Positions 39,052 to 48,453 of a DNA stretch of 64,000 nt are shown one piece after another. Both the position numbers and the translations under genes were made by a program. The notes under the pieces were generated by a model. That model ran no database searches. It was not told the DNA's origin and was given only the letters and a program-made list of their open reading frames with translations. The first letter of the stretch is position 1. Each line of letters opens with the position of its first letter. The stretch lies in contig JBGARZ010000010.1 in the NCBI GenBank assembly GCA_044229975.1, forward strand, positions 32,001-96,000. Reading direction: 5' to 3'. This DNA comes from Polyangiales bacterium. GTDB lineage: Bacteria > Myxococcota_A > Polyangia > Polyangiales > Ga0077539.

Positions 39052-39369
39052 ATGGCGATTCTCAACGAGGAATGGCAGCAGCTTCTCGCGGACTACCGCG
39101 AGTACCACGACGACTTCATCTGCGAGGCGACGCACCTCGTGGGCATCCCGATGATCATGGCGTCGATCCCCGCGATGATCATTCCCCCGGTGGGCATCGG
39201 CCTCTTCGCCGCGGGGTGGACGCTCCAGGGCATCGGGCACGTGTCCAAGGGCAATCCGCCGAAGTTCTTCGGCGACAAGCGCAACCTGCTGGTGGGCGCC
39301 ATCTGGTGGTTCGACACCGTGCTGCGCCCGGTGGGCCTCGGCGAGCCGCTCTTCGGCAAGCGTGCGTAG
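39052..39369 (+). CDS. DUF962 / Mpo1-like protein
   Basis: YREYH..THLVGIP..WTLQGIGH..GNPPKF..LLVG. Confidence 0.85.
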   Translation: MAILNEEWQQLLADYREYHDDFICEATHLVGIPMIMASIPAMIIPPVGIGLFAAGWTLQGIGHVSKGNPPKFFGDKRNLLVGAIWWFDTVLRPVGLGEPLFGKRA

Positions 39370-39574: not shown

Positions 39575-42500
39575 ATGACCCACGCCTCACACTCGCTCGT
39601 CGCCGAGCGCGAGACTCCGCTCGCCCCGTGGCCCAACCACAACGACCTCGTCTCCGCTCTCGCCGAGCACGTCACACGCTACGGGAGCGTCTTTCGCCTC
39701 CCCGCCTTTCGCCCGACGTACGTGCTCAGCGGAGCAGAGGGCATGCGGGTGATGGACGACCTCCAGCACGTCGAACGCACGCTCGTCGTGATGCCGCCCG
39801 ACGCGCACCTGCTGCTCGCCAACGACGGCATCGGTCCGCTCAGCTCCACCGACGGCGCGGAGCACTTCCGCCGGCTCTCCGCGTGGGTCTCGCCCGACGC
39901 GCTCGACCCCGCGGGGCTCGCGGCGTCGTTTCAACGCATCCAACGCAGCGTCGACGACATCCTCTCGGGATGGGAGCGCCTCGGGCTCTTCTCGCTCGCG
40001 CTGGAGGTGCAGCGGGCGACGTGGCGCCTCTCGACGATGCTCCTGCTCGGGCGCGAGGCCGAAGGTCACCGGCTGGTCGACGTCGACACCCGCTCGAAGT
40101 CGACGCAGGCGTCCGAGCGTGAGGCCGCCAAGGCGCGGCTGCTCGCGTGGCTCGATGGTGAGGCCGCGGAGTTCGAGGGTGGCAGCGCCCGCGCGCCGTG
40201 GTGCCTGGGCGCGAAGCTCGCCGCCGCCGGAACGCTGTCGCGCGCTGAGCTCGTCAACGAGATCAACCACGGGCTGACCGCGGGGATGTTCGGGTGCGTT
40301 CCGACCACCGAGGCGTTGCACCGACTCTGCCGCGACCGCGAGCTGCTGGCCGAGCTCCGCGCCGAGCACCGCGCCCTCGGCGGTGACATTTCACTCGCAG
40401 CCCTGCGCCGCACGCCGAAGCTCCTCAAGCTCATCGACGAATCGCTGCGCCTCACTACGCCGGTTCCGCTGCTCTACGCCCGCGCGAAGCACGACTTCCT
40501 CATCGACGGCGTGCTCATCCCGGCGGGCGCGACGCTGCTCGGCGCCGCCCAAGCGACCAACCAGGACGCCGGCTTCGTGTCGACCGCGCACGACAAACAC
40601 GTCGCGTCGCCCGCGGCCAACATCGCCTTCGGCATCGGCCGCCACTGGTGCCCCGCGGCCAACGTCGCGACCGTCTCCATGTGGCTGCTCGCGACGAAGC
40701 TCCTCGCTTCGTACGACCTGCGCGCCCTCGACGAGACCGACATCCCGGTGCGCCGGGCGAGCGGACTCTCCGCGCCGCGGGGCGCCTGGGTGCGCTTCGG
40801 CCGCGGAACCCTCGATGGCCCCATGCACGCCGCCGCGAAGCGCGCCCCCACGCTGCCGACGCCCGCGGCGGACGACGCGTCGCCGCCGCCCGACCTCGAC
40901 GCGCGCATCGCGATCGTGGGCGCGGGCATCACCGGGCTCACCGTCGCGCATGAGCTGCGCAAGCGGGGCTTTCGGCACGTCACGGTGTTCGAGGGGGCGC
41001 CCTCGGTGGGCGGCAAGGCGGATACGGTTCACGTCGATGGGCGGCCGTACAACCTGGGCGCGCACCTCTGCCACGGCAGCCTCGGCGTCGCGGCGCTCGC
41101 GAAGGACGTCGGCGTCGCGATGGAGCGAACGACCTCCTACGCGCTCTGGGACATCGACCACAACCGCGCGGTGCCGCGCCGTTATCAAGACCTCGCGGAG
41201 TTCGACAAGCTGCGTCGGTGGATCGCCGCGCGCCCCGAGCTGACCCGCGAGGCGGGCTTCGCGGCCGAGGCCGAGACCTACCCCGTGGTCGACCGCTGGC
41301 TCGCCGCCAACGACCTCGGGGGATTGCGCGAGGTGGGGCCGTTCTTCACCGGCGCGGGCTATGGCTTCATGGACGAGGACGTGCCGGCGGCGTTCTTCCT
41401 GAAGTTTGCGCAGCACATGGCCGAGGAGGGGTGGACCCCGTCGGGCGGCTACAAGCACCTGCTGGAGACCGTGAGCCGCGGGCTCGATGTGCGCTGCGCG
41501 ACGACGGTCGAGCGCGTCGTGCGAACGAAGGGCGAGGGCGTCCGGCTGACGACGCGCGCTGCCGGAGAAGAGGCGCGGACGGAGACCTTCGACCGGCTGG
41601 TGCTCACCGGGCCGCTGGAGCACGCGCACCGCTACCTCGATCAGAGCGACGAGGAGTCGGCGCTGTTTTCGCGGGTTCGTTCGGACGAGTACTACACGGT
41701 GCTCGCCACGCTCGACGTCGCGTCGCCCCACGCGGCGGGGCTCTACATCGTGCCCGGCAACACCGCGACGCGGGGCGAAGGCGGTCGCACCACGGCCTTC
41801 GTCCGCATGTACGACGAGAGCCGCGTCTATCACTTCTTCGGCTACGGCGTGCCTGGTCAGAGCGACGAGTCCATCCTCGAACGGGTGCGCGCCGACGCCC
41901 GCTCGCTCGGCGGCGAGATCACCGAGGTGCACGTATTCCGCAAGTGGGCCTATGCGCCGCGCGTCTCGCCGCACGACATGGCGCTCGGCTTCCACGCGAA
42001 GCTCGATCGCCTCCAGGGGCGCGCGGGCACCTACTACGCGGGGAGCCTCCTGGCCTTCGAGCTCACCGACCACAACGTGCTCTTCGCGCAGAGCCTCGTC
42101 GCGCGCTTCTTCTCCCCCGACGCCGCGCGCCCCGCGGTCGACGCGCCCGTCGCCAGTGACCCGCTGTGCCGGGTACCCGAGCGCGGAACGTCGTCCATCC
42201 TCGACGTGCTCCGCGAGCGCTACGAGCGCACGCCCGACGCGCCGGTGACCACCTTCCTCGACGCCAGGGGCAAGGAGGTGCGCACGCTCACGTACCGCGG
42301 TCTCGTCGAGCGCGCGACGGCCTGCGCGGTGGCCCTCGGCGATGCGAGCGTGCGGGACGGCGACCGCGTCGCGCTGGTGTACCCGCCCGACACCGATGAG
42401 TTTCTCGTGGGCTTCTTCGGGTGCCTGTTGGCGGGCGCCGTGGCGGTGCCCATCGCGTCGCCCGACCCGCGCGCGCTCGACGTCGAGGTGCCGCGCTTCG

Positions 42501-45028
42501 CCCACCTCATCGGCGACTGCGGCTGCCGCGTGGCGCTCACCACCCGGCTCTACTACGGCGCCGCGCTCGTCGGCCGCGCGTGGCACCGCCTCACCGGCCG
42601 CGCCGCGGCGACGCCCGCGAAGTGGCCCGACCTCACCTGGATTCGCACCGACGGCCTGTCGCCCATCGCGCCGACCGCGCGCCGACCCATCCCCTCGGCG
42701 CCGGCCGACAAGCTCGCGTACCTGCAATACACGTCCGGATCGACCTCCGCGCCGAAGGGCGTGATGATCCGCCACGGCAACATCCTCCACAACGTCGAGG
42801 CCATCCGCCGCCAGGCGCACATGACCGCGCGCTCGGTGCTGGTCGGGTGGGTTCCGCTCTTCCACGACATGGGCCTCGTGGGCGGACCGCTCAACGCCAT
42901 CTACACGGGCGCGCACCTCATCTACTTCTCGCCGATGAGCTTCCTCCAGAACCCGCGGCTCTGGCTCGAAGCCATGAGCCGCTACCGCGCGACGCACACC
43001 GAGAGCCCCAACTTCGGGTACGAGTTTCTGCTGCGGCGCATCGAGGGTGATCCCCTCGACGGCATCGACCTCTCGCGCGTGACGCACGCCCTCTTCGGCG
43101 GCGAGGTGATGCGCCCCCGAACCGTCGAGCGGGTGGCCGAACGACTGCACAAGACCGGCTTCCGCCCGTCGGCGATGATCAACATCTTCGGCGCCGCGGA
43201 GGCCACGCTCTTCCTCGCGGGCGGCGGCGACGGCGAGACCCCGCTGCTGTCCGTCGTGACGCAGCCGCTCCAGGCGCAGCGCCGCGCGGTGCCGTGCGCG
43301 CCCGATGCGTTCTCCTCCACCACGCTCGTCGGGTGCCGTGTCCCGCCCGACGCGTGCGACCTGCGCGTAGTCGACCCCGAGAGCACGCGTCTCCTGCCCG
43401 ACCGCGAGGTGGGCGAGGTGTGGCTCTCCTCGCCCTCGGTCGCCGAAGGCTACTGGGGCCGCTCGCGCGAGGACAACGACCGCACCTTCCGCGCACGCGT
43501 CGCAGGCGACCCATCTCCGGCTCGAACCTACCTCCGCACGGGCGACCTGGGCTTCATCGACCGCGGCGTCGTCTACCTCTGCGGGCGCTTCAAGGAGATG
43601 ATGATCTTCGAGGGCCGCAACATCTATCCCATGGACGTCGAGGCGAGCGTGATGAACGCCCACCCCGCCATCCGCCAGGGCTGCGTCGCGGCGTTCTCGG
43701 TGGAGGAGGGCGAGCAGGAGAAGCTGGTCATCGTCGCCGAGCTCAAGGCCAACGGCGCCGCCCACTCCGCCGCCGCGGCGTCGGCGATCGCGCTCACCGT
43801 CGCGACGCAGCACCGCCTCACCTGCAAGGCCGTGCTGCTCGTGAAGACCAACTCCCTGCCGAAGACCAGCAGCGGCAAGCTCCAGCGCTACAAGGCCCGC
43901 GAGCTCTACCTCGCACGCCTCCTCGACGTCCTGCACACGCAGTCCGCCGACGCCGTCGTCGCTCCCTCCGACGCACCCATGGAGACGGTCGTCGACGACC
44001 TCAAGAGCCCTGTCTTCGCAGGCGACGTGGGCGACACCCGCCGCTGGCTGCAACGGCTCGTCGCCTCGGCGCTGCACGTCCCCGCCGAGGAAATCGACCC
44101 GACGGTCGCGCTCTCGCTCTACGGCGTCGAGTCGGCGCAGGCGCTGTCGATGGTGGTGAAGCTCTCGGAGTACGTCGGCCGGGACGTCGCGCCGTCGGTG
44201 CTGTTCGAGCACCAGACCGTCGACGAGCTCGCGGCCTACCTCTGCGGCGAGGAGCGGCCCTTGAGTCGCGTGCTCGTCCCGCTGCAACGCGGCGAGCCGG
44301 GGCGTTCGCGGACGCTGTTCTGCGTGCACCCGGTGGGCGGCAGCGCGATGGCCTACCTCGGGCTGGTGAAGCACCTGCCCGAGCACGTCCCCGTGTACGC
44401 CTTCGACAGCGACGGGGCGGAGGTTCCGTGCGACGACCTCGTGGAGATGGCGCGGCGCTACGTCGCGGAGATGCAGGTGGTGCAGCCCGATGGGCCGTAC
44501 ACCCTCGTCGGCTACTCCTTCGGCGGAACCGTCGCCTTCGAGATGGCCCGCCAGATGATCGCGGCGGGCCTCACGGTGGAGGGGCTCTTCATGATCGACG
44601 CGCCCGCGCCGCTCGCCGCCGAGGGCGCGGTCGAGTCGGCGCCGCACCCGCAGGAGGCCGAGACCTACGCGCGCTTCCTGGCGTCGGCGATGCTCAACCG
44701 CATCGTCTCCGACGAGCTCGACGACGACGCGCGCGACCGGCTGCGCGAGCGCGTCGAGCAGAACCACCAGGCCCACGCCCGCTACCGCGTGGGGCGGGGC
44801 GAGCGCGGGTCGTCGCCGGAGATCACGTTCTTCCGCGCGGCGGACGAAGCACCCAACCTGCGTGACCACCTGCGGCACCCGGCCTTCGACGCGCCCGACT
44901 TCGGCTGGTCGCAGGTCTCGCCCGACGCCCCGGTGCGCGTCGCCACGGTGCCCGGTGATCACTTCAGCGTGATGCGCGAACCCGCCGCGCTCGCGTCGCT
45001 GCTGGCCGAGGCGATCGGCCCGTCGTGA
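39575..45028 (+). CDS. multidomain enzyme: cytochrome P450 - FAD oxidoreductase/isomerase - fatty acyl-AMP ligase - ACP - thioesterase
   Basis: P450: ESLR and FGIGRHWC. FAD domain: IVGAGITG..E..VGGK. FAAL: YLQYTSGSTSAPKGV, PLFHDMGL, RTGDLGF and PKTSSGK. ACP: GVES. TE: HPVGG, GYSFGG and GDHF. Confidence 0.93.
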   Translation: MTHASHSLVAERETPLAPWPNHNDLVSALAEHVTRYGSVFRLPAFRPTYVLSGAEGMRVMDDLQHVERTLVVMPPDAHLLLANDGIGPLSSTDGAEHFRRLSAWVSPDALDPAGLAASFQRIQRSVDDILSGWERLGLFSLALEVQRATWRLSTMLLLGREAEGHRLVDVDTRSKSTQASEREAAKARLLAWLDGEAAEFEGGSARAPWCLGAKLAAAGTLSRAELVNEINHGLTAGMFGCVPTTEALHRLCRDRELLAELRAEHRALGGDISLAALRRTPKLLKLIDESLRLTTPVPLLYARAKHDFLIDGVLIPAGATLLGAAQATNQDAGFVSTAHDKHVASPAANIAFGIGRHWCPAANVATVSMWLLATKLLASYDLRALDETDIPVRRASGLSAPRGAWVRFGRGTLDGPMHAAAKRAPTLPTPAADDASPPPDLDARIAIVGAGITGLTVAHELRKRGFRHVTVFEGAPSVGGKADTVHVDGRPYNLGAHLCHGSLGVAALAKDVGVAMERTTSYALWDIDHNRAVPRRYQDLAEFDKLRRWIAARPELTREAGFAAEAETYPVVDRWLAANDLGGLREVGPFFTGAGYGFMDEDVPAAFFLKFAQHMAEEGWTPSGGYKHLLETVSRGLDVRCATTVERVVRTKGEGVRLTTRAAGEEARTETFDRLVLTGPLEHAHRYLDQSDEESALFSRVRSDEYYTVLATLDVASPHAAGLYIVPGNTATRGEGGRTTAFVRMYDESRVYHFFGYGVPGQSDESILERVRADARSLGGEITEVHVFRKWAYAPRVSPHDMALGFHAKLDRLQGRAGTYYAGSLLAFELTDHNVLFAQSLVARFFSPDAARPAVDAPVASDPLCRVPERGTSSILDVLRERYERTPDAPVTTFLDARGKEVRTLTYRGLVERATACAVALGDASVRDGDRVALVYPPDTDEFLVGFFGCLLAGAVAVPIASPDPRALDVEVPRFAHLIGDCGCRVALTTRLYYGAALVGRAWHRLTGRAAATPAKWPDLTWIRTDGLSPIAPTARRPIPSAPADKLAYLQYTSGSTSAPKGVMIRHGNILHNVEAIRRQAHMTARSVLVGWVPLFHDMGLVGGPLNAIYTGAHLIYFSPMSFLQNPRLWLEAMSRYRATHTESPNFGYEFLLRRIEGDPLDGIDLSRVTHALFGGEVMRPRTVERVAERLHKTGFRPSAMINIFGAAEATLFLAGGGDGETPLLSVVTQPLQAQRRAVPCAPDAFSSTTLVGCRVPPDACDLRVVDPESTRLLPDREVGEVWLSSPSVAEGYWGRSREDNDRTFRARVAGDPSPARTYLRTGDLGFIDRGVVYLCGRFKEMMIFEGRNIYPMDVEASVMNAHPAIRQGCVAAFSVEEGEQEKLVIVAELKANGAAHSAAAASAIALTVATQHRLTCKAVLLVKTNSLPKTSSGKLQRYKARELYLARLLDVLHTQSADAVVAPSDAPMETVVDDLKSPVFAGDVGDTRRWLQRLVASALHVPAEEIDPTVALSLYGVESAQALSMVVKLSEYVGRDVAPSVLFEHQTVDELAAYLCGEERPLSRVLVPLQRGEPGRSRTLFCVHPVGGSAMAYLGLVKHLPEHVPVYAFDSDGAEVPCDDLVEMARRYVAEMQVVQPDGPYTLVGYSFGGTVAFEMARQMIAAGLTVEGLFMIDAPAPLAAEGAVESAPHPQEAETYARFLASAMLNRIVSDELDDDARDRLRERVEQNHQAHARYRVGRGERGSSPEITFFRAADEAPNLRDHLRHPAFDAPDFGWSQVSPDAPVRVATVPGDHFSVMREPAALASLLAEAIGPS

Positions 45029-46423
45029 GCGGCGCACCCGCCACCCTCGCGCGCATCGCCGACCTGCCGGGACCGCGGCCGCTGCCGCTCGTGGGCAACG
45101 TCCTCCAGGTCTCGGTGCCGCGCATCCACCAACACCTGGAGGCGTGGGCCCGCGAGTACGGCGACCGCTACGCCTTCCGCCTCGGGCCGCGCGCCTTCGC
45201 GGTCGTCTCCGACCCGGAGACCGTGCAGCTCACCCTGCGCAACCGACCGCGCGGCTTCAACAAGTCGGGCGCCGAGCGCATCTGCGAGGAGCTCGGCATC
45301 CCAGGGCCCATCTCCGCCGAGGGCAGGCAGTGGCAGCGGCAGCGTCGGCTGGTGACGGCCGCGCTCTCGCACGAGCACCTCGGCGCCTTCTACGCGACGC
45401 TGGCGGGCGCGACGGCGACGCCTCGTCGAGCGGCTCAGGGCGCGCGCGGGCGAGACCATCGACGTGCAGGCCGAGCTCATGCGGCTGCTGGTGGAGGCCA
45501 CGACGGCGCTCGCCTTCGGCCGCGAGCTCGGCGACGTCGGGGGCGACGCGATACAGCGGCACCTCGATCGGGTGTTCACGAAGCTGATGAGCCGGCTGAC
45601 GGCCCCGGCGCCGTACTGGCGGCTCGTGCGGCTGCCCTCCGACCGCGCGGTCGACGACGCCGTCGCGCAGCTTCGCGGGATGTTCGAGGGGCTCATCGCG
45701 GAGGAGCGCGCGTGGCTCGCGGGCGAGGGGAAGGGCGCCGCGCCGCGCAGCTTCATGGCGGCCATGCTCGCCGCGCGCGACGAGGACGGCGCGGCCTTCG
45801 ACGAGCCGGTGATCTTCGGCAACCTCGTGCAGATCTTGATGGCGGGCGAGGACACCACCGCCAACACCATCTCGTGGGCCGTGCACCACCTCTGCGACGC
45901 GCCGGACGACGTCACCGCGTTGCGCGCCGAGGCCGAGCGGGTGCTGGGGGACGCGAGGGTTCCGCCGACGCTGGAGGCCGCCCAGGCGCTGGCCTACGCC
46001 GGGGCGTGCGCCAACGAGGCGATGCGGCTGCGCCCGGTGCTCCCGGTGCACTTCTTCACGGCCAACGAGGGCGCCGACCTGCCGGGGCTGCGCGTCGAGG
46101 CGGGCGAGCACCTCATCGTGCTGACCCGACCGGCGGGTCTCGATCCGCGCGACGTGGCGCGGCCGATGGAGTTCGCGCCGGAACGCTGGTCCGACCTGGG
46201 CGTCGCGGCGGAGTGGCAGAAGCGAGGGGTGTACGTCCCCTTCGGGTCGGGCGCGCGCCTCTGCGCCGGGCGCACGCTCGCGCTGCTGGAGATGCGCGTC
46301 GTGCTGGGCGCGCTCTACCGCAACTTCCACGTCGAGCGCGTCGGCCGCAGCGAGGACGTCAGCGAAGAACTCCAGATGACGATGCGCCCGGTGGGCCTGC
46401 GCGTGCGGCTGCGACCGCACTGA
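45025..46423 (+). pseudogene. cytochrome P450, split by a +1 frameshift at about 45415 (real or sequencing error)
   Basis: N-part LPGPRPLPLVGN..AEGRQWQRQRR is in the frame of 45025. C-part AGEDTT, EAMR, PERW and FGSGARLCAG is in the frame of 45464. Confidence 0.88.
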
Positions 46424-47946: not shown

Positions 47947-48453
47947 TCACTCCACCTTCGCCCGCGCGAACTTCCGCCACGCCTCGGGCAGCCGCATCCC
48001 CATCACCTTCTCGGTTCCGGCCTCGTCGAGCACCACGAACGAGAACATCCCCCGGTACACCTCCGCGCCCGACTGCCGCAGGCGCACGTCGATCTTCAGT
48101 GTTCGTCGGTTCTCTTCGACGATGGTGGCCCTGCCCTCGACCTCGACCCCGATGCGCACCGGCTTGAGCAGCCGCGCCTCGATGGCCCCGGTGAACCCGA
48201 ACTGCTTCCGCACGCCGATGACCACCCAGCCCGCGAGCTCGTCGGCGAGCGTCGTCACGAGGCCGCCGTGCATCACCCCCGCGGGCCCCTGGAATTCCGG
48301 CGGCGCGGTGTACTTCACCGTCACCTCGCGGCCCTCGCGCACCGGCTTCAGCTTCATGCCGAAGGGGTTGCTCGGCGAGCACCCGAAGCACGGCTGCCCA
48401 TCACCGAAGATCGCCCCGTCGAGCGCCTCCACGTCGTCGTGGTCGTGACTCAT
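47947..48453 (-). CDS. PaaI-family hotdog thioesterase
   Basis: CFGC..NPFG and QGPAGVMHGGLVTTLADE. Confidence 0.9.
   Translation of the reverse strand: MSHDHDDVEALDGAIFGDGQPCFGCSPSNPFGMKLKPVREGREVTVKYTAPPEFQGPAGVMHGGLVTTLADELAGWVVIGVRKQFGFTGAIEARLLKPVRIGVEVEGRATIVEENRRTLKIDVRLRQSGAEVYRGMFSFVVLDEAGTEKVMGMRLPEAWRKFARAKVE

Follow-up and report, generated by a model that had tools for sequence, protein, structure and literature searches.

Judged from its sequence, P0001, the product of one gene in the window (the whole 64,000-nucleotide stretch of DNA that was analysed), is a candidate ketosynthase-free enzyme that would load an unsaturated fatty acid, shift or conjugate its double bonds at a flavin domain and free the modified acid, with a P450-fold domain serving as a peroxide-type accessory. 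We hold this reading at about even confidence. The more telling fact, overlooked in the earlier note on this DNA, is a sister family in which a catalase-like domain takes the place of the P450 fold. The P0001 gene is a single uninterrupted open reading frame, and Pfam placed all five domains in the order first claimed for them: P450 (residues 220–392, 49 bits, the C-terminal half of the family alone), Amino_oxidase (452–792), AMP-binding (880–1294) followed by PF23024 (1341–1452), PP-binding (1490–1556) and Thioesterase (1579–1808). The FGIGRHWC motif, of which the last residue is the heme cysteine, the codon of the carrier serine and the GTGA overlap with a second P450 gene (45025–45028) are all where they had been reported (Table 1). 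Ketosynthase matches were absent from the window and condensation-domain matches from the whole genome, which is 93% complete; for the window, the earlier note had said the same.

Table 1 Features of the P0001 locus, with positions in the window.
Feature	Position	Strand	Basis or characteristic residues
Five-domain gene, 1817 aa (P0001)	39575..45028	+	ORF, Pfam, 10 full-length homologues
Divergent P450-fold domain, aa 20-412	39632..40810	+	heme Cys359 at 40649-40651; fold model; alignments
PAI-like FAD domain, aa 441-848	40895..42118	+	sequence and profile match to PAI structure
FAAL adenylation domain, aa 870-1455	42182..43939	+	W1092, P1094, M1099, P1127, F1147
ACP, Ser1520 (44132-44134)	44033..44248	+	motif GVES here, mostly GIDS in homologues
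Type I thioesterase, Ser1648-Asp1675-His1796	44306..45010	+	Pfam, triad alignment
Second P450, N-terminal piece	45025..45405	+	start overlaps stop of five-domain gene
Second P450, C-terminal piece	45446..46423	+	ordinary AGEDT, ExxR, Cys motifs
Mpo1-like small gene, 205 bp upstream	39052..39369	+	Pfam

In assemblies from NCBI, ENA and Logan, ten other proteins align to 98–99% of the P0001 chain with identities of 52–71%, and all five domains are fused in every one of them. These full-length homologues rule out mis-assembly of the fusion. At both homologue loci that were inspected, the chain is one open reading frame. Of 47 loci from an alignment-based scan of genome contigs, two are full length; a scan of metagenomes gave 18, none of full length, and the single N-terminal half of the chain gave no match as a query against genome contigs. 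The contigs listed for four public runs are 151–348 bases long and span neither a domain junction nor the frame change in the second P450 described below. The ESM Atlas returned generic P450 and amine-oxidase clusters alone, and no promoter or terminator consensus was found upstream of the gene. Our literature searches gave no paper on an enzyme of such a five-domain build, in line with the earlier statement that no characterised enzyme with this domain order was known.

The reading frame of the second P450 shifts in this assembly, somewhere between about 45405 and 45446: Pfam positions 2–114 are in frame from 45025, and positions 145–456 are in the frame ending at 46423. All seven of its homologues tested are one unbroken chain, and the background of frame switches is one in 89 orthologues (about 33,500 residues); the change may be an assembly error or the mark of a pseudogene. 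No second P450 lies beside the five-domain homologues at either of the two loci with context. The coupling of this P450 to the five-domain protein proposed previously is therefore not retained, since the gene is frameshifted here and missing there; it is a local neighbour and not a conserved part of the system. The Mpo1-like gene is probably unrelated as well, because it was not seen next to homologues of the five-domain gene. The window ORFs include no rubredoxin and no desaturase (zero desaturase matches).

The adenylation domain is of the FAAL type. Its eleven best matches among solved structures have E-values from 4e-100 to 1e-61, compared to about 1e-19 for FadD13; 8hd4, 5ey9, 5hm3 and 3pbk are among the eleven and are labelled acyl-AMP or acyl-adenylate ligases, and the remaining ones we take to be FAALs. 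Residues about 1225–1248, presumably the site of the FAAL-specific insertion, align to 7r7f and 3kxw with gaps of one or two residues. In the EcFAAL study, W224, P226, M231, P259 and F279 are given as FAAL residue marks, and the bulky residues with the proline (W224, P226, M231, F279) are said to block the CoA pocket (PMC8460268). All five marks are found in P0001 at a constant offset of 868 (Table 1) and are invariant in 14 of 14 aligned rows. The FAAL-specific helix (EcFAAL 251–259) corresponds to P1120–P1127, collinear with 7r7f and 3kxw by sequence alone. The structure matches and the residue marks (PMC8460268) thus bear out the earlier assignment of a FAAL-type domain, not a CoA ligase, and the domain reaches none of the named FAAL family cut-offs. 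The ACP and the GxSxG thioesterase were also identified correctly: the carrier serine and the catalytic sites are intact, and Ser1520 and the Ser-Asp-His triad are invariant in 14 of 14 rows. The usual carrier motif is GxDS, from which GVES of P0001 departs.

PAI is a stand-alone enzyme that acts on free acids, and it is the only solved structure that matches the entire flavin domain (E-value 4e-28 with the single domain and 6e-72 with a profile; next structure 3.5e-20). The label "FAD isomerase" used in the earlier note remains the best one because PAI is the sole full-length structural relative. Arg88 and Phe193 presumably form the carboxylate gate of PAI; Arg517 of P0001 aligns pairwise to Arg88 and is an arginine in ten of eleven orthologues but varies across the wider family, and the stretch around Phe193 is deleted in P0001, so that the gate is only partly kept. 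Glu829, near the flavin-binding end, is found in 24 of 25 rows, and PAI has glycine there. The domain also matches HemY models weakly. Enzymes with the PAI fold are not all isomerases: CpaO, for which PAI (PDB 2B9W) is the nearest structure, is an H2O2-forming oxidase (PMC13003489).

The genome that encodes P0001 also encodes a paralogue, P0018, in which a catalase-like domain directly precedes the same type of flavin domain, and five further proteins share this arrangement. The order of FAAL and ACP, the position of the FAAL and its ancestry differ between the P450-type and the catalase-type chains. Nevertheless, the flavin domain is immediately preceded by a heme domain in all 14 P450-type chains that are whole or nearly so and in all six catalase-type chains. 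P0074 is a flavin-FAAL-ACP chain lacking the heme domain. One tree row (L085), labelled heme-less, in fact opens with the end of a catalase-like domain, and the P450-type clade is unaffected. The release end of the wider family is a thioesterase, an acyltransferase or a PKS module.

The occupation of this slot by two unrelated peroxide-type heme folds, despite the different FAALs, raises the alternative that O2 is the oxidant when the flavin domain acts on the tethered chain, and that the H2O2 formed fuels oxygenation of the same chain by the adjacent heme domain. The proteins would then be an undescribed one-chain class that arose at least twice: a PAI-like flavin oxidase would act on a carrier-bound fatty acid and supply H2O2 to a threonine-less P450 or a catalase-like domain next to it. 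The precedent of CpaO, the conserved Glu829 in place of the glycine of PAI, and the failure to find a redox partner among the window ORFs are consistent with such a cascade. However, the flavin domain is far closer to PAI, which is a redox-neutral isomerase, than to CpaO (6e-72 against 2e-17 in the same profile search), and the heme domain is decaying in the P450-type clade, which is unexpected for a required second step. We consider the cascade unlikely, and the proposal of a flavin-oxidase class is equally tentative.

The N-terminal domain has the fold and the heme cysteine of a P450, but it is not a normal monooxygenase. Its predicted structure contains the whole P450 fold (pLDDT 77.5, Z 31.5, rmsd 4.3 over 376 aligned residues); a single-sequence fold of residues 1–852 had a pLDDT of 35 and was unusable. 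The I-helix reads A236-G237-M238-F239-G240 and lacks the acid/Thr pair. Among eleven aligned P450-type chains, none has an acid at position 239 and one has threonine at the threonine position. Instead, P0001 contains the conserved E229 and H232 of an E-x-x-H motif. The earlier idea of a heme-thiolate P450 oxidising the tethered chain is therefore weakened: fold and heme cysteine are present, but the acid/Thr pair, the meander and a redox partner in the window are missing, and constraint on the domain is relaxed. The best solved-structure match of less-decayed fused relatives is to CYP152 peroxygenases (E-value 2e-24), with which they share a similar K-helix and HRCP heme loop and the lack of the acid/Thr pair; CYP120A1 and ancestral CYP11A1 score within 100-fold and are tied by fold. 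The fold search did not separate CYP152 from CYP120, CYP725, CYP46 and BM3. The hallmark of CYP152 is an Arg-Pro pair in the I-helix, seen as LRP in the CYP152 row of the alignment. Neither P0001 and its orthologues nor the distant fusions have it; they show E-x-x-H instead, and P0001 also differs in lacking the meander. Stand-alone relatives of the domain were found by a profile search, after a word-based search had given one weak match. The domain may have its origin close to CYP152, in a threonine-less group that is uncharacterised; this lead is thin.

The P450-fold domain is under relaxed constraint, as its sequence indicates, evolving two to four times faster than the FAAL, and in this clade it could be a relic that is dead or dying, or serve as a scaffold for lipid binding, in an enzyme that just loads, isomerises and releases. 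Its mean pairwise identity is 46%, compared to 71–74% for the flavin and FAAL domains, and one close pair has 16 differences in 391 P450 positions and 9 in the 1236 positions of the rest of the chain (p 2e-5). The meander is lost from all eleven chains, P0001 included. The glutamate of ExxR is kept in four of the eleven (E289-R292 is present in P0001), tyrosine replaces the heme cysteine in P0002, the fragment P0124 lacks the Cys loop, and P0001 has leucine at the position of the helix-C arginine. On the other hand, the domain is full length and in frame in all eleven chains, down to 35% identity, and Glu229 and His357 are each kept in 11 of 11 and Cys359 in 10 of 11. We consider a relic or scaffold rather improbable.

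The rival nearest to the idea in the earlier note, where the product was suggested to be an oxylipin-like signal or toxin, is an oxylipin route, in which a lipoxygenase-made hydroperoxide is captured and rearranged by the heme domain as in CYP74 or coral allene oxide synthases. Both heme folds are known for such parallel fatty-acid peroxide chemistry (PMC10813956, PMC13049297, PMC5617202). The best structure for the catalase-like sister domain is coral allene oxide synthase (E-value 1e-25), lipoxygenase matches occur in four frames of the P0001 host, and the axial-Asn (Thr) position, a glycine in P0001, is asparagine in three of the eleven chains. Some CYP74-type enzymes have a non-polar residue at that site (PMC13049297). 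However, the known systems are lipoxygenase-fed, and lipoxygenase matches were absent from two homologue genomes, of which the completeness is not given, and from one of three catalase-type hosts. The nine-residue heme-loop insertion described for the CYP74 clan (PMC10813956) is absent from FGIGRHWC of P0001, and CYP74 is missing from the 60 best P450-domain matches listed. The fold matches listed include no CYP74 row either, an absence that carries no weight. Of the heme residues given for the catalase-type allene oxide synthase (PMC5617202), P0018 keeps R64, H67, R102 and Y353, but Phe replaces the distal Thr66, as in all five catalase-type domains aligned there, and Thr replaces Asn137. The oxylipin route is therefore very doubtful. 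Slighter still is the chance that the substrate is something other than an ordinary fatty acid, or that tailoring takes place on free molecules and the fusion serves only to co-localise the domains: the flavin domain does belong to a broad amine-oxidase Pfam family and the FAAL cut-offs are not reached, but the nearest characterised relative of every domain handles acyl chains, and variable release ends are expected for a tethered acyl product.

Based on these comparisons, a sequence of reactions can be proposed for the load, isomerise and release reading that we prefer. The FAAL, with its residues in place, would form an acyl-AMP and pass the acyl chain to the phosphopantetheine on Ser1520, as general knowledge of FAALs suggests. 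By analogy to PAI, to which the flavin domain is similar over its full length, FAD would abstract a hydride from the tethered chain, at an allylic or bis-allylic carbon, and give it back elsewhere. The adjacent heme domain, partly decayed in this clade, may use or remove peroxide and perhaps add oxygen, to judge from its motifs. The thioesterase, with its complete triad, would presumably hydrolyse the product. The P0001 host contains a pfa PUFA synthase and two PPTase-family genes, and three hosts that were checked have 13, 14 and 14 desaturase matches. Since the two gammaproteobacterial hosts had no pfaD above the cut-off, not all hosts would make a PUFA substrate of their own. Counting against the best explanation are the poorly kept PAI gate residues, the heme-less P0074, the thin CYP152 lead and the GVES carrier motif, as well as CpaO being an oxidase on the PAI fold and the gammaproteobacterial hosts without pfaD.

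The logic of loading, modifying and releasing is already known from polyyne pathways; the new elements, in the literature searched, are the one-chain build and the catalase-type sister family. The Cay and Pgn pathways comprise a FAAL, an ACP, three desaturases, a thioesterase and the P450 CayG (PMC9828172). As proposed for P0001, they load a dedicated ACP with a fatty acid in the absence of a ketosynthase, modify the chain while it is tethered and free it with a thioesterase, but they consist of separate proteins and use desaturases with rubredoxin, whereas P0001 combines a P450 fold that lacks the threonine with a PAI-like flavin domain. In plants, FAALs occur fused to "HemY" and catalase domains; these proteins are conserved, and their function is described as unknown (PMC8460268). 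From this published description, they are likely made of the same parts (flavin domain, FAAL and heme domain). The bacterial sisters carry a catalase-like domain, and the flavin domain of P0001 is weakly HemY-like; P0001 differs in its P450 fold, thioesterase end and domain order.

If the proposal is true, a complete line for fatty-acid remodelling resides in one soluble protein, so that a single expression construct tried with a panel of fatty acids could reveal its reaction. It would be the first case, in the literature searched, in which PAI-like flavin chemistry acts on a chain bound to a carrier, and a way to conjugated or oxygenated fatty acids that needs no reductase would be of biocatalytic use. 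If instead the flavin-oxidase and heme class is real, no reductase would be needed, the bacterial proteins would be the counterpart of the plant HemY-FAAL-catalase proteins, and a function would be indicated for the uncharacterised E-x-x-H group of P450s. The swap of two unrelated heme folds in one slot is a natural experiment on the role of the heme. With catalase-like sisters in the same slot, it would also offer a handle on the conserved and unexplained plant proteins (PMC8460268), and a bacterial model in which they could be tested.

The five domains of P0001 lie in one reading frame of 1817 residues, with third-position GC of 0.91–0.96 per domain, in a window of about 72% GC from a 10-Mb genome. 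With the pfa cluster, this size and GC content would suit a myxobacterium-like host. Pfam places them in the order P450, amine-oxidase-type FAD domain, AMP-binding domain, ACP and thioesterase, as the earlier note had read them, and its motifs and ACP serine codon are correctly positioned. Ten of the 592 matches found span 98–99% of the chain (52–71% identity), and three others are partial. The fusion is therefore genuine, and mis-assembly, which the note had named as a possible refutation, is excluded. The genome contains 13 ketosynthase matches, all of them outside the window, and a genome-wide search found no condensation domain, in agreement with the note's claim that the window lacks both. 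The gene is rare and patchily distributed. Thirty genomes from the host's family gave two weak partial P450 matches but no orthologue, and neither 60 relatives nor 400 sampled genomes from the phylum had a flavin-domain match above 41% identity. The two homologues seen in genomic context belong to a Moraxellaceae MAG and a Pseudomonadota MAG. The gene has likely spread horizontally.

The adenylation domain has named acyl-AMP ligases among its best structure matches (E 4e-100 to 1e-61), and FAAL models of NCBIfam rank first, with scores under their whole-protein cut-offs. The CoA-blocking residues of EcFAAL, as listed in PMC8460268, map with a single constant offset to W1092, P1094, M1099, P1127 and F1147, all invariant, which supports the proposed FAAL type. 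Ser1520 of the ACP and the Ser-Asp-His triad of the thioesterase do not vary across all 14 aligned rows. The three parts look fully maintained.

The flavin domain aligns over its whole length with PDB 2B9W (E 4e-28), and a profile of eight such domains finds this structure at 6e-72, the next at 3.5e-20. According to PMC13003489, 2B9W is the polyunsaturated fatty acid isomerase of P. acnes (PAI), which is also the nearest structure to the H2O2-forming oxidase CpaO; the fold thus allows both isomerase and oxidase chemistry. The isomerase label of the earlier note holds in that PAI is a much closer relative than the oxidase. Alignments show only partial conservation of the PAI gate residues. Their partial loss would fit a thioester substrate.

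We propose, at roughly even confidence, that a fatty acid would be loaded onto the carrier, the flavin domain would shift a double bond while the chain is tethered, and the thioesterase would free the product; the heme domain would serve as an accessory of peroxide type. Alternatively, the flavin domain may be an oxidase whose peroxide feeds the heme domain, which the fold permits; given the closeness to PAI, we consider this rather unlikely.

The model of the heme domain is a complete P450 fold with Cys359 (residues 330–358 are of low confidence), so the fold recognised in the earlier note stands. However, F239-G240 occupy the acid/threonine positions, the meander is missing, and the helix-C arginine position is Leu. 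Mean identity within the clade is 46% for the heme domain as against 71–74% for the flavin and FAAL domains. The heme-to-FAAL distance ratio is 1.9–4.3 in five pairs versus 1.3–1.45 in two distant pairs, in which saturation may lower it. The excess change is significant in both close pairs tested, and in one homologue Tyr replaces the heme Cys. Constraint on the domain is thus relaxed within the clade. With these features missing and constraint relaxed, the domain cannot be classed as a normal monooxygenase. Either it is driven by peroxide or it is decaying, and both may apply. A dead heme domain in P0001, which relaxed constraint would suit and the retained Cys359 would not, is unlikely.

A profile search with the P450 domain gave 68 matches at 1e-10, among them three more distant fusions. 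P0126 and P0129 start like P0001; P0128 (3739 aa) continues from P450-flavin-FAAL-ACP into a full reducing PKS module, KS-AT-DH-ER-KR-ACP-thioesterase, and its P450 domain retains ExxR and the meander. ExxR, the meander and an HRCP loop are all present in the distant fusions, whose best matches are, by a narrow margin, CYP152 peroxygenases, although the Arg-Pro pair of these is lacking. Stand-alone P450s were also found. The 22 top-ranked ones aligned all lack the threonine, and most have E-x-H-H in the I helix; a crude pattern count of 46 full-length matches gave 24 of E-x-H-H type, 7 ordinary and 15 unclassified. These groups cluster away from four ordinary P450s, with no clear order among themselves. 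P0130–P0151 form an uncharacterised stand-alone group with E-x-H-H, no I-helix threonine and a peroxygenase-like heme loop; their nearest structures are CYP120A1, CYP725A4, CYP51 and CYP152.

Substrate supply in the host is plausible: desaturases, lipoxygenases, PPTase-family genes and a pfa cluster are all encoded in its genome. In the two gammaproteobacterial hosts (completeness not given) desaturases are likewise numerous, but neither lipoxygenase nor pfaD gave a match above cut-off, which counts against home-made PUFA as a requirement. It also counts against rearrangement of a lipoxygenase-made hydroperoxide, which is improbable. A non-fatty or untethered substrate is the least probable alternative.

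A host paralogue, P0018, would transfer the modified acyl group to a lipid. Its catalase-like part has no Pfam match; among structures it is closest to coral allene oxide synthase (E 1e-25), and the heme residues listed in PMC5617202 are kept, except Thr66. Five other chains have the catalase-like domain immediately before the flavin domain and end in a thioesterase, acyltransferase, hydrolase or nothing recognised, while P0074 is a flavin-FAAL-ACP chain without a heme domain. A well-supported branch (99/98) sets the flavin domains of the 16 P450-type rows apart on one side, and in a quick unrooted tree unrelated FAALs separate those of the two chain types. The same parts list thus recurs with two domain orders and two heme folds that are unrelated, a pattern suggesting that a peroxide-type heme next to a PAI-like flavin domain has been selected for. 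Plant FAALs of unknown function between HemY and catalase domains, as described in PMC8460268, are probably a third arrangement.

The second P450, proposed as coupled to the fusion, does overlap its stop, but its frame shifts between about 45405 and 45446 in this assembly. Seven of seven homologues tested, from 70 found, are continuous. Third-position GC is still high in both pieces, which makes the lesion either a recent one or an error of assembly. Neither this gene nor the Mpo1-like gene (family annotation, 2-hydroxy-palmitic acid dioxygenase) adjoins the two homologues with context, although at one of them, L002, only 97 bases are visible upstream. The second P450 is a neighbour outside the conserved system.

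Features of the P0001 region and of related loci (G000, host; C, contig)
Feature	Location	Strand	Remarks
Mpo1-like gene	window 39052-39369	+	205 bp upstream of fusion; not beside homologues
P0001	window 39575-45028	+	five-domain fusion
Second P450	window 45025-46423	+	two frames
Hot-dog thioesterase	window 47947-48453	-	30% identical gene ~1 kb downstream of catalase-type chain in L127; recurrence may be chance
pfa-type PUFA synthase	L132:1581-18440, = G000:C10	+	three genes
P0018	L081:9788-15166, = G000:C13	-	FAAL, catalase-like, PAI-like, ACP, acyltransferase; HAD-family gene head to head
Membrane protein	L133:4338-6245, = G000:C19	-	catalase-like domain directly before lipoxygenase match in following gene; resembles allene oxide synthase-lipoxygenase pair
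Frame switch	G000:C29 about 101,900		another in host assembly; orthologue in genome G001 intact
Fatty-acid desaturase	L082:8617-9687	-	two genes from catalase-type chain in genome G012
Tandem PAI-like matches	G004:C62 about 90800-94950		two
Tandem PAI-like matches	L129:5008-8010		two; another genome
Three-gene run	L002:6675-10506	+	by eye: putative START-fold protein, KAS III-like enzyme, thiamine-dependent enzyme; AraC-like regulator adjoining

A literature search with most subscription journals outside its scope found no paper on the P0001 architecture. By their marks, P0001 is a member of neither CYP152 nor CYP74. In its way of working it resembles the polyyne FAAL-ACP-thioesterase pathways (PMC9828172), but it lacks their desaturase triad and so is not one of them. 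P0001 is a real, rare and uncharacterised variant of thiotemplated fatty-acid tailoring, in which the heme-swapped sisters are of greater interest than the neighbouring P450.
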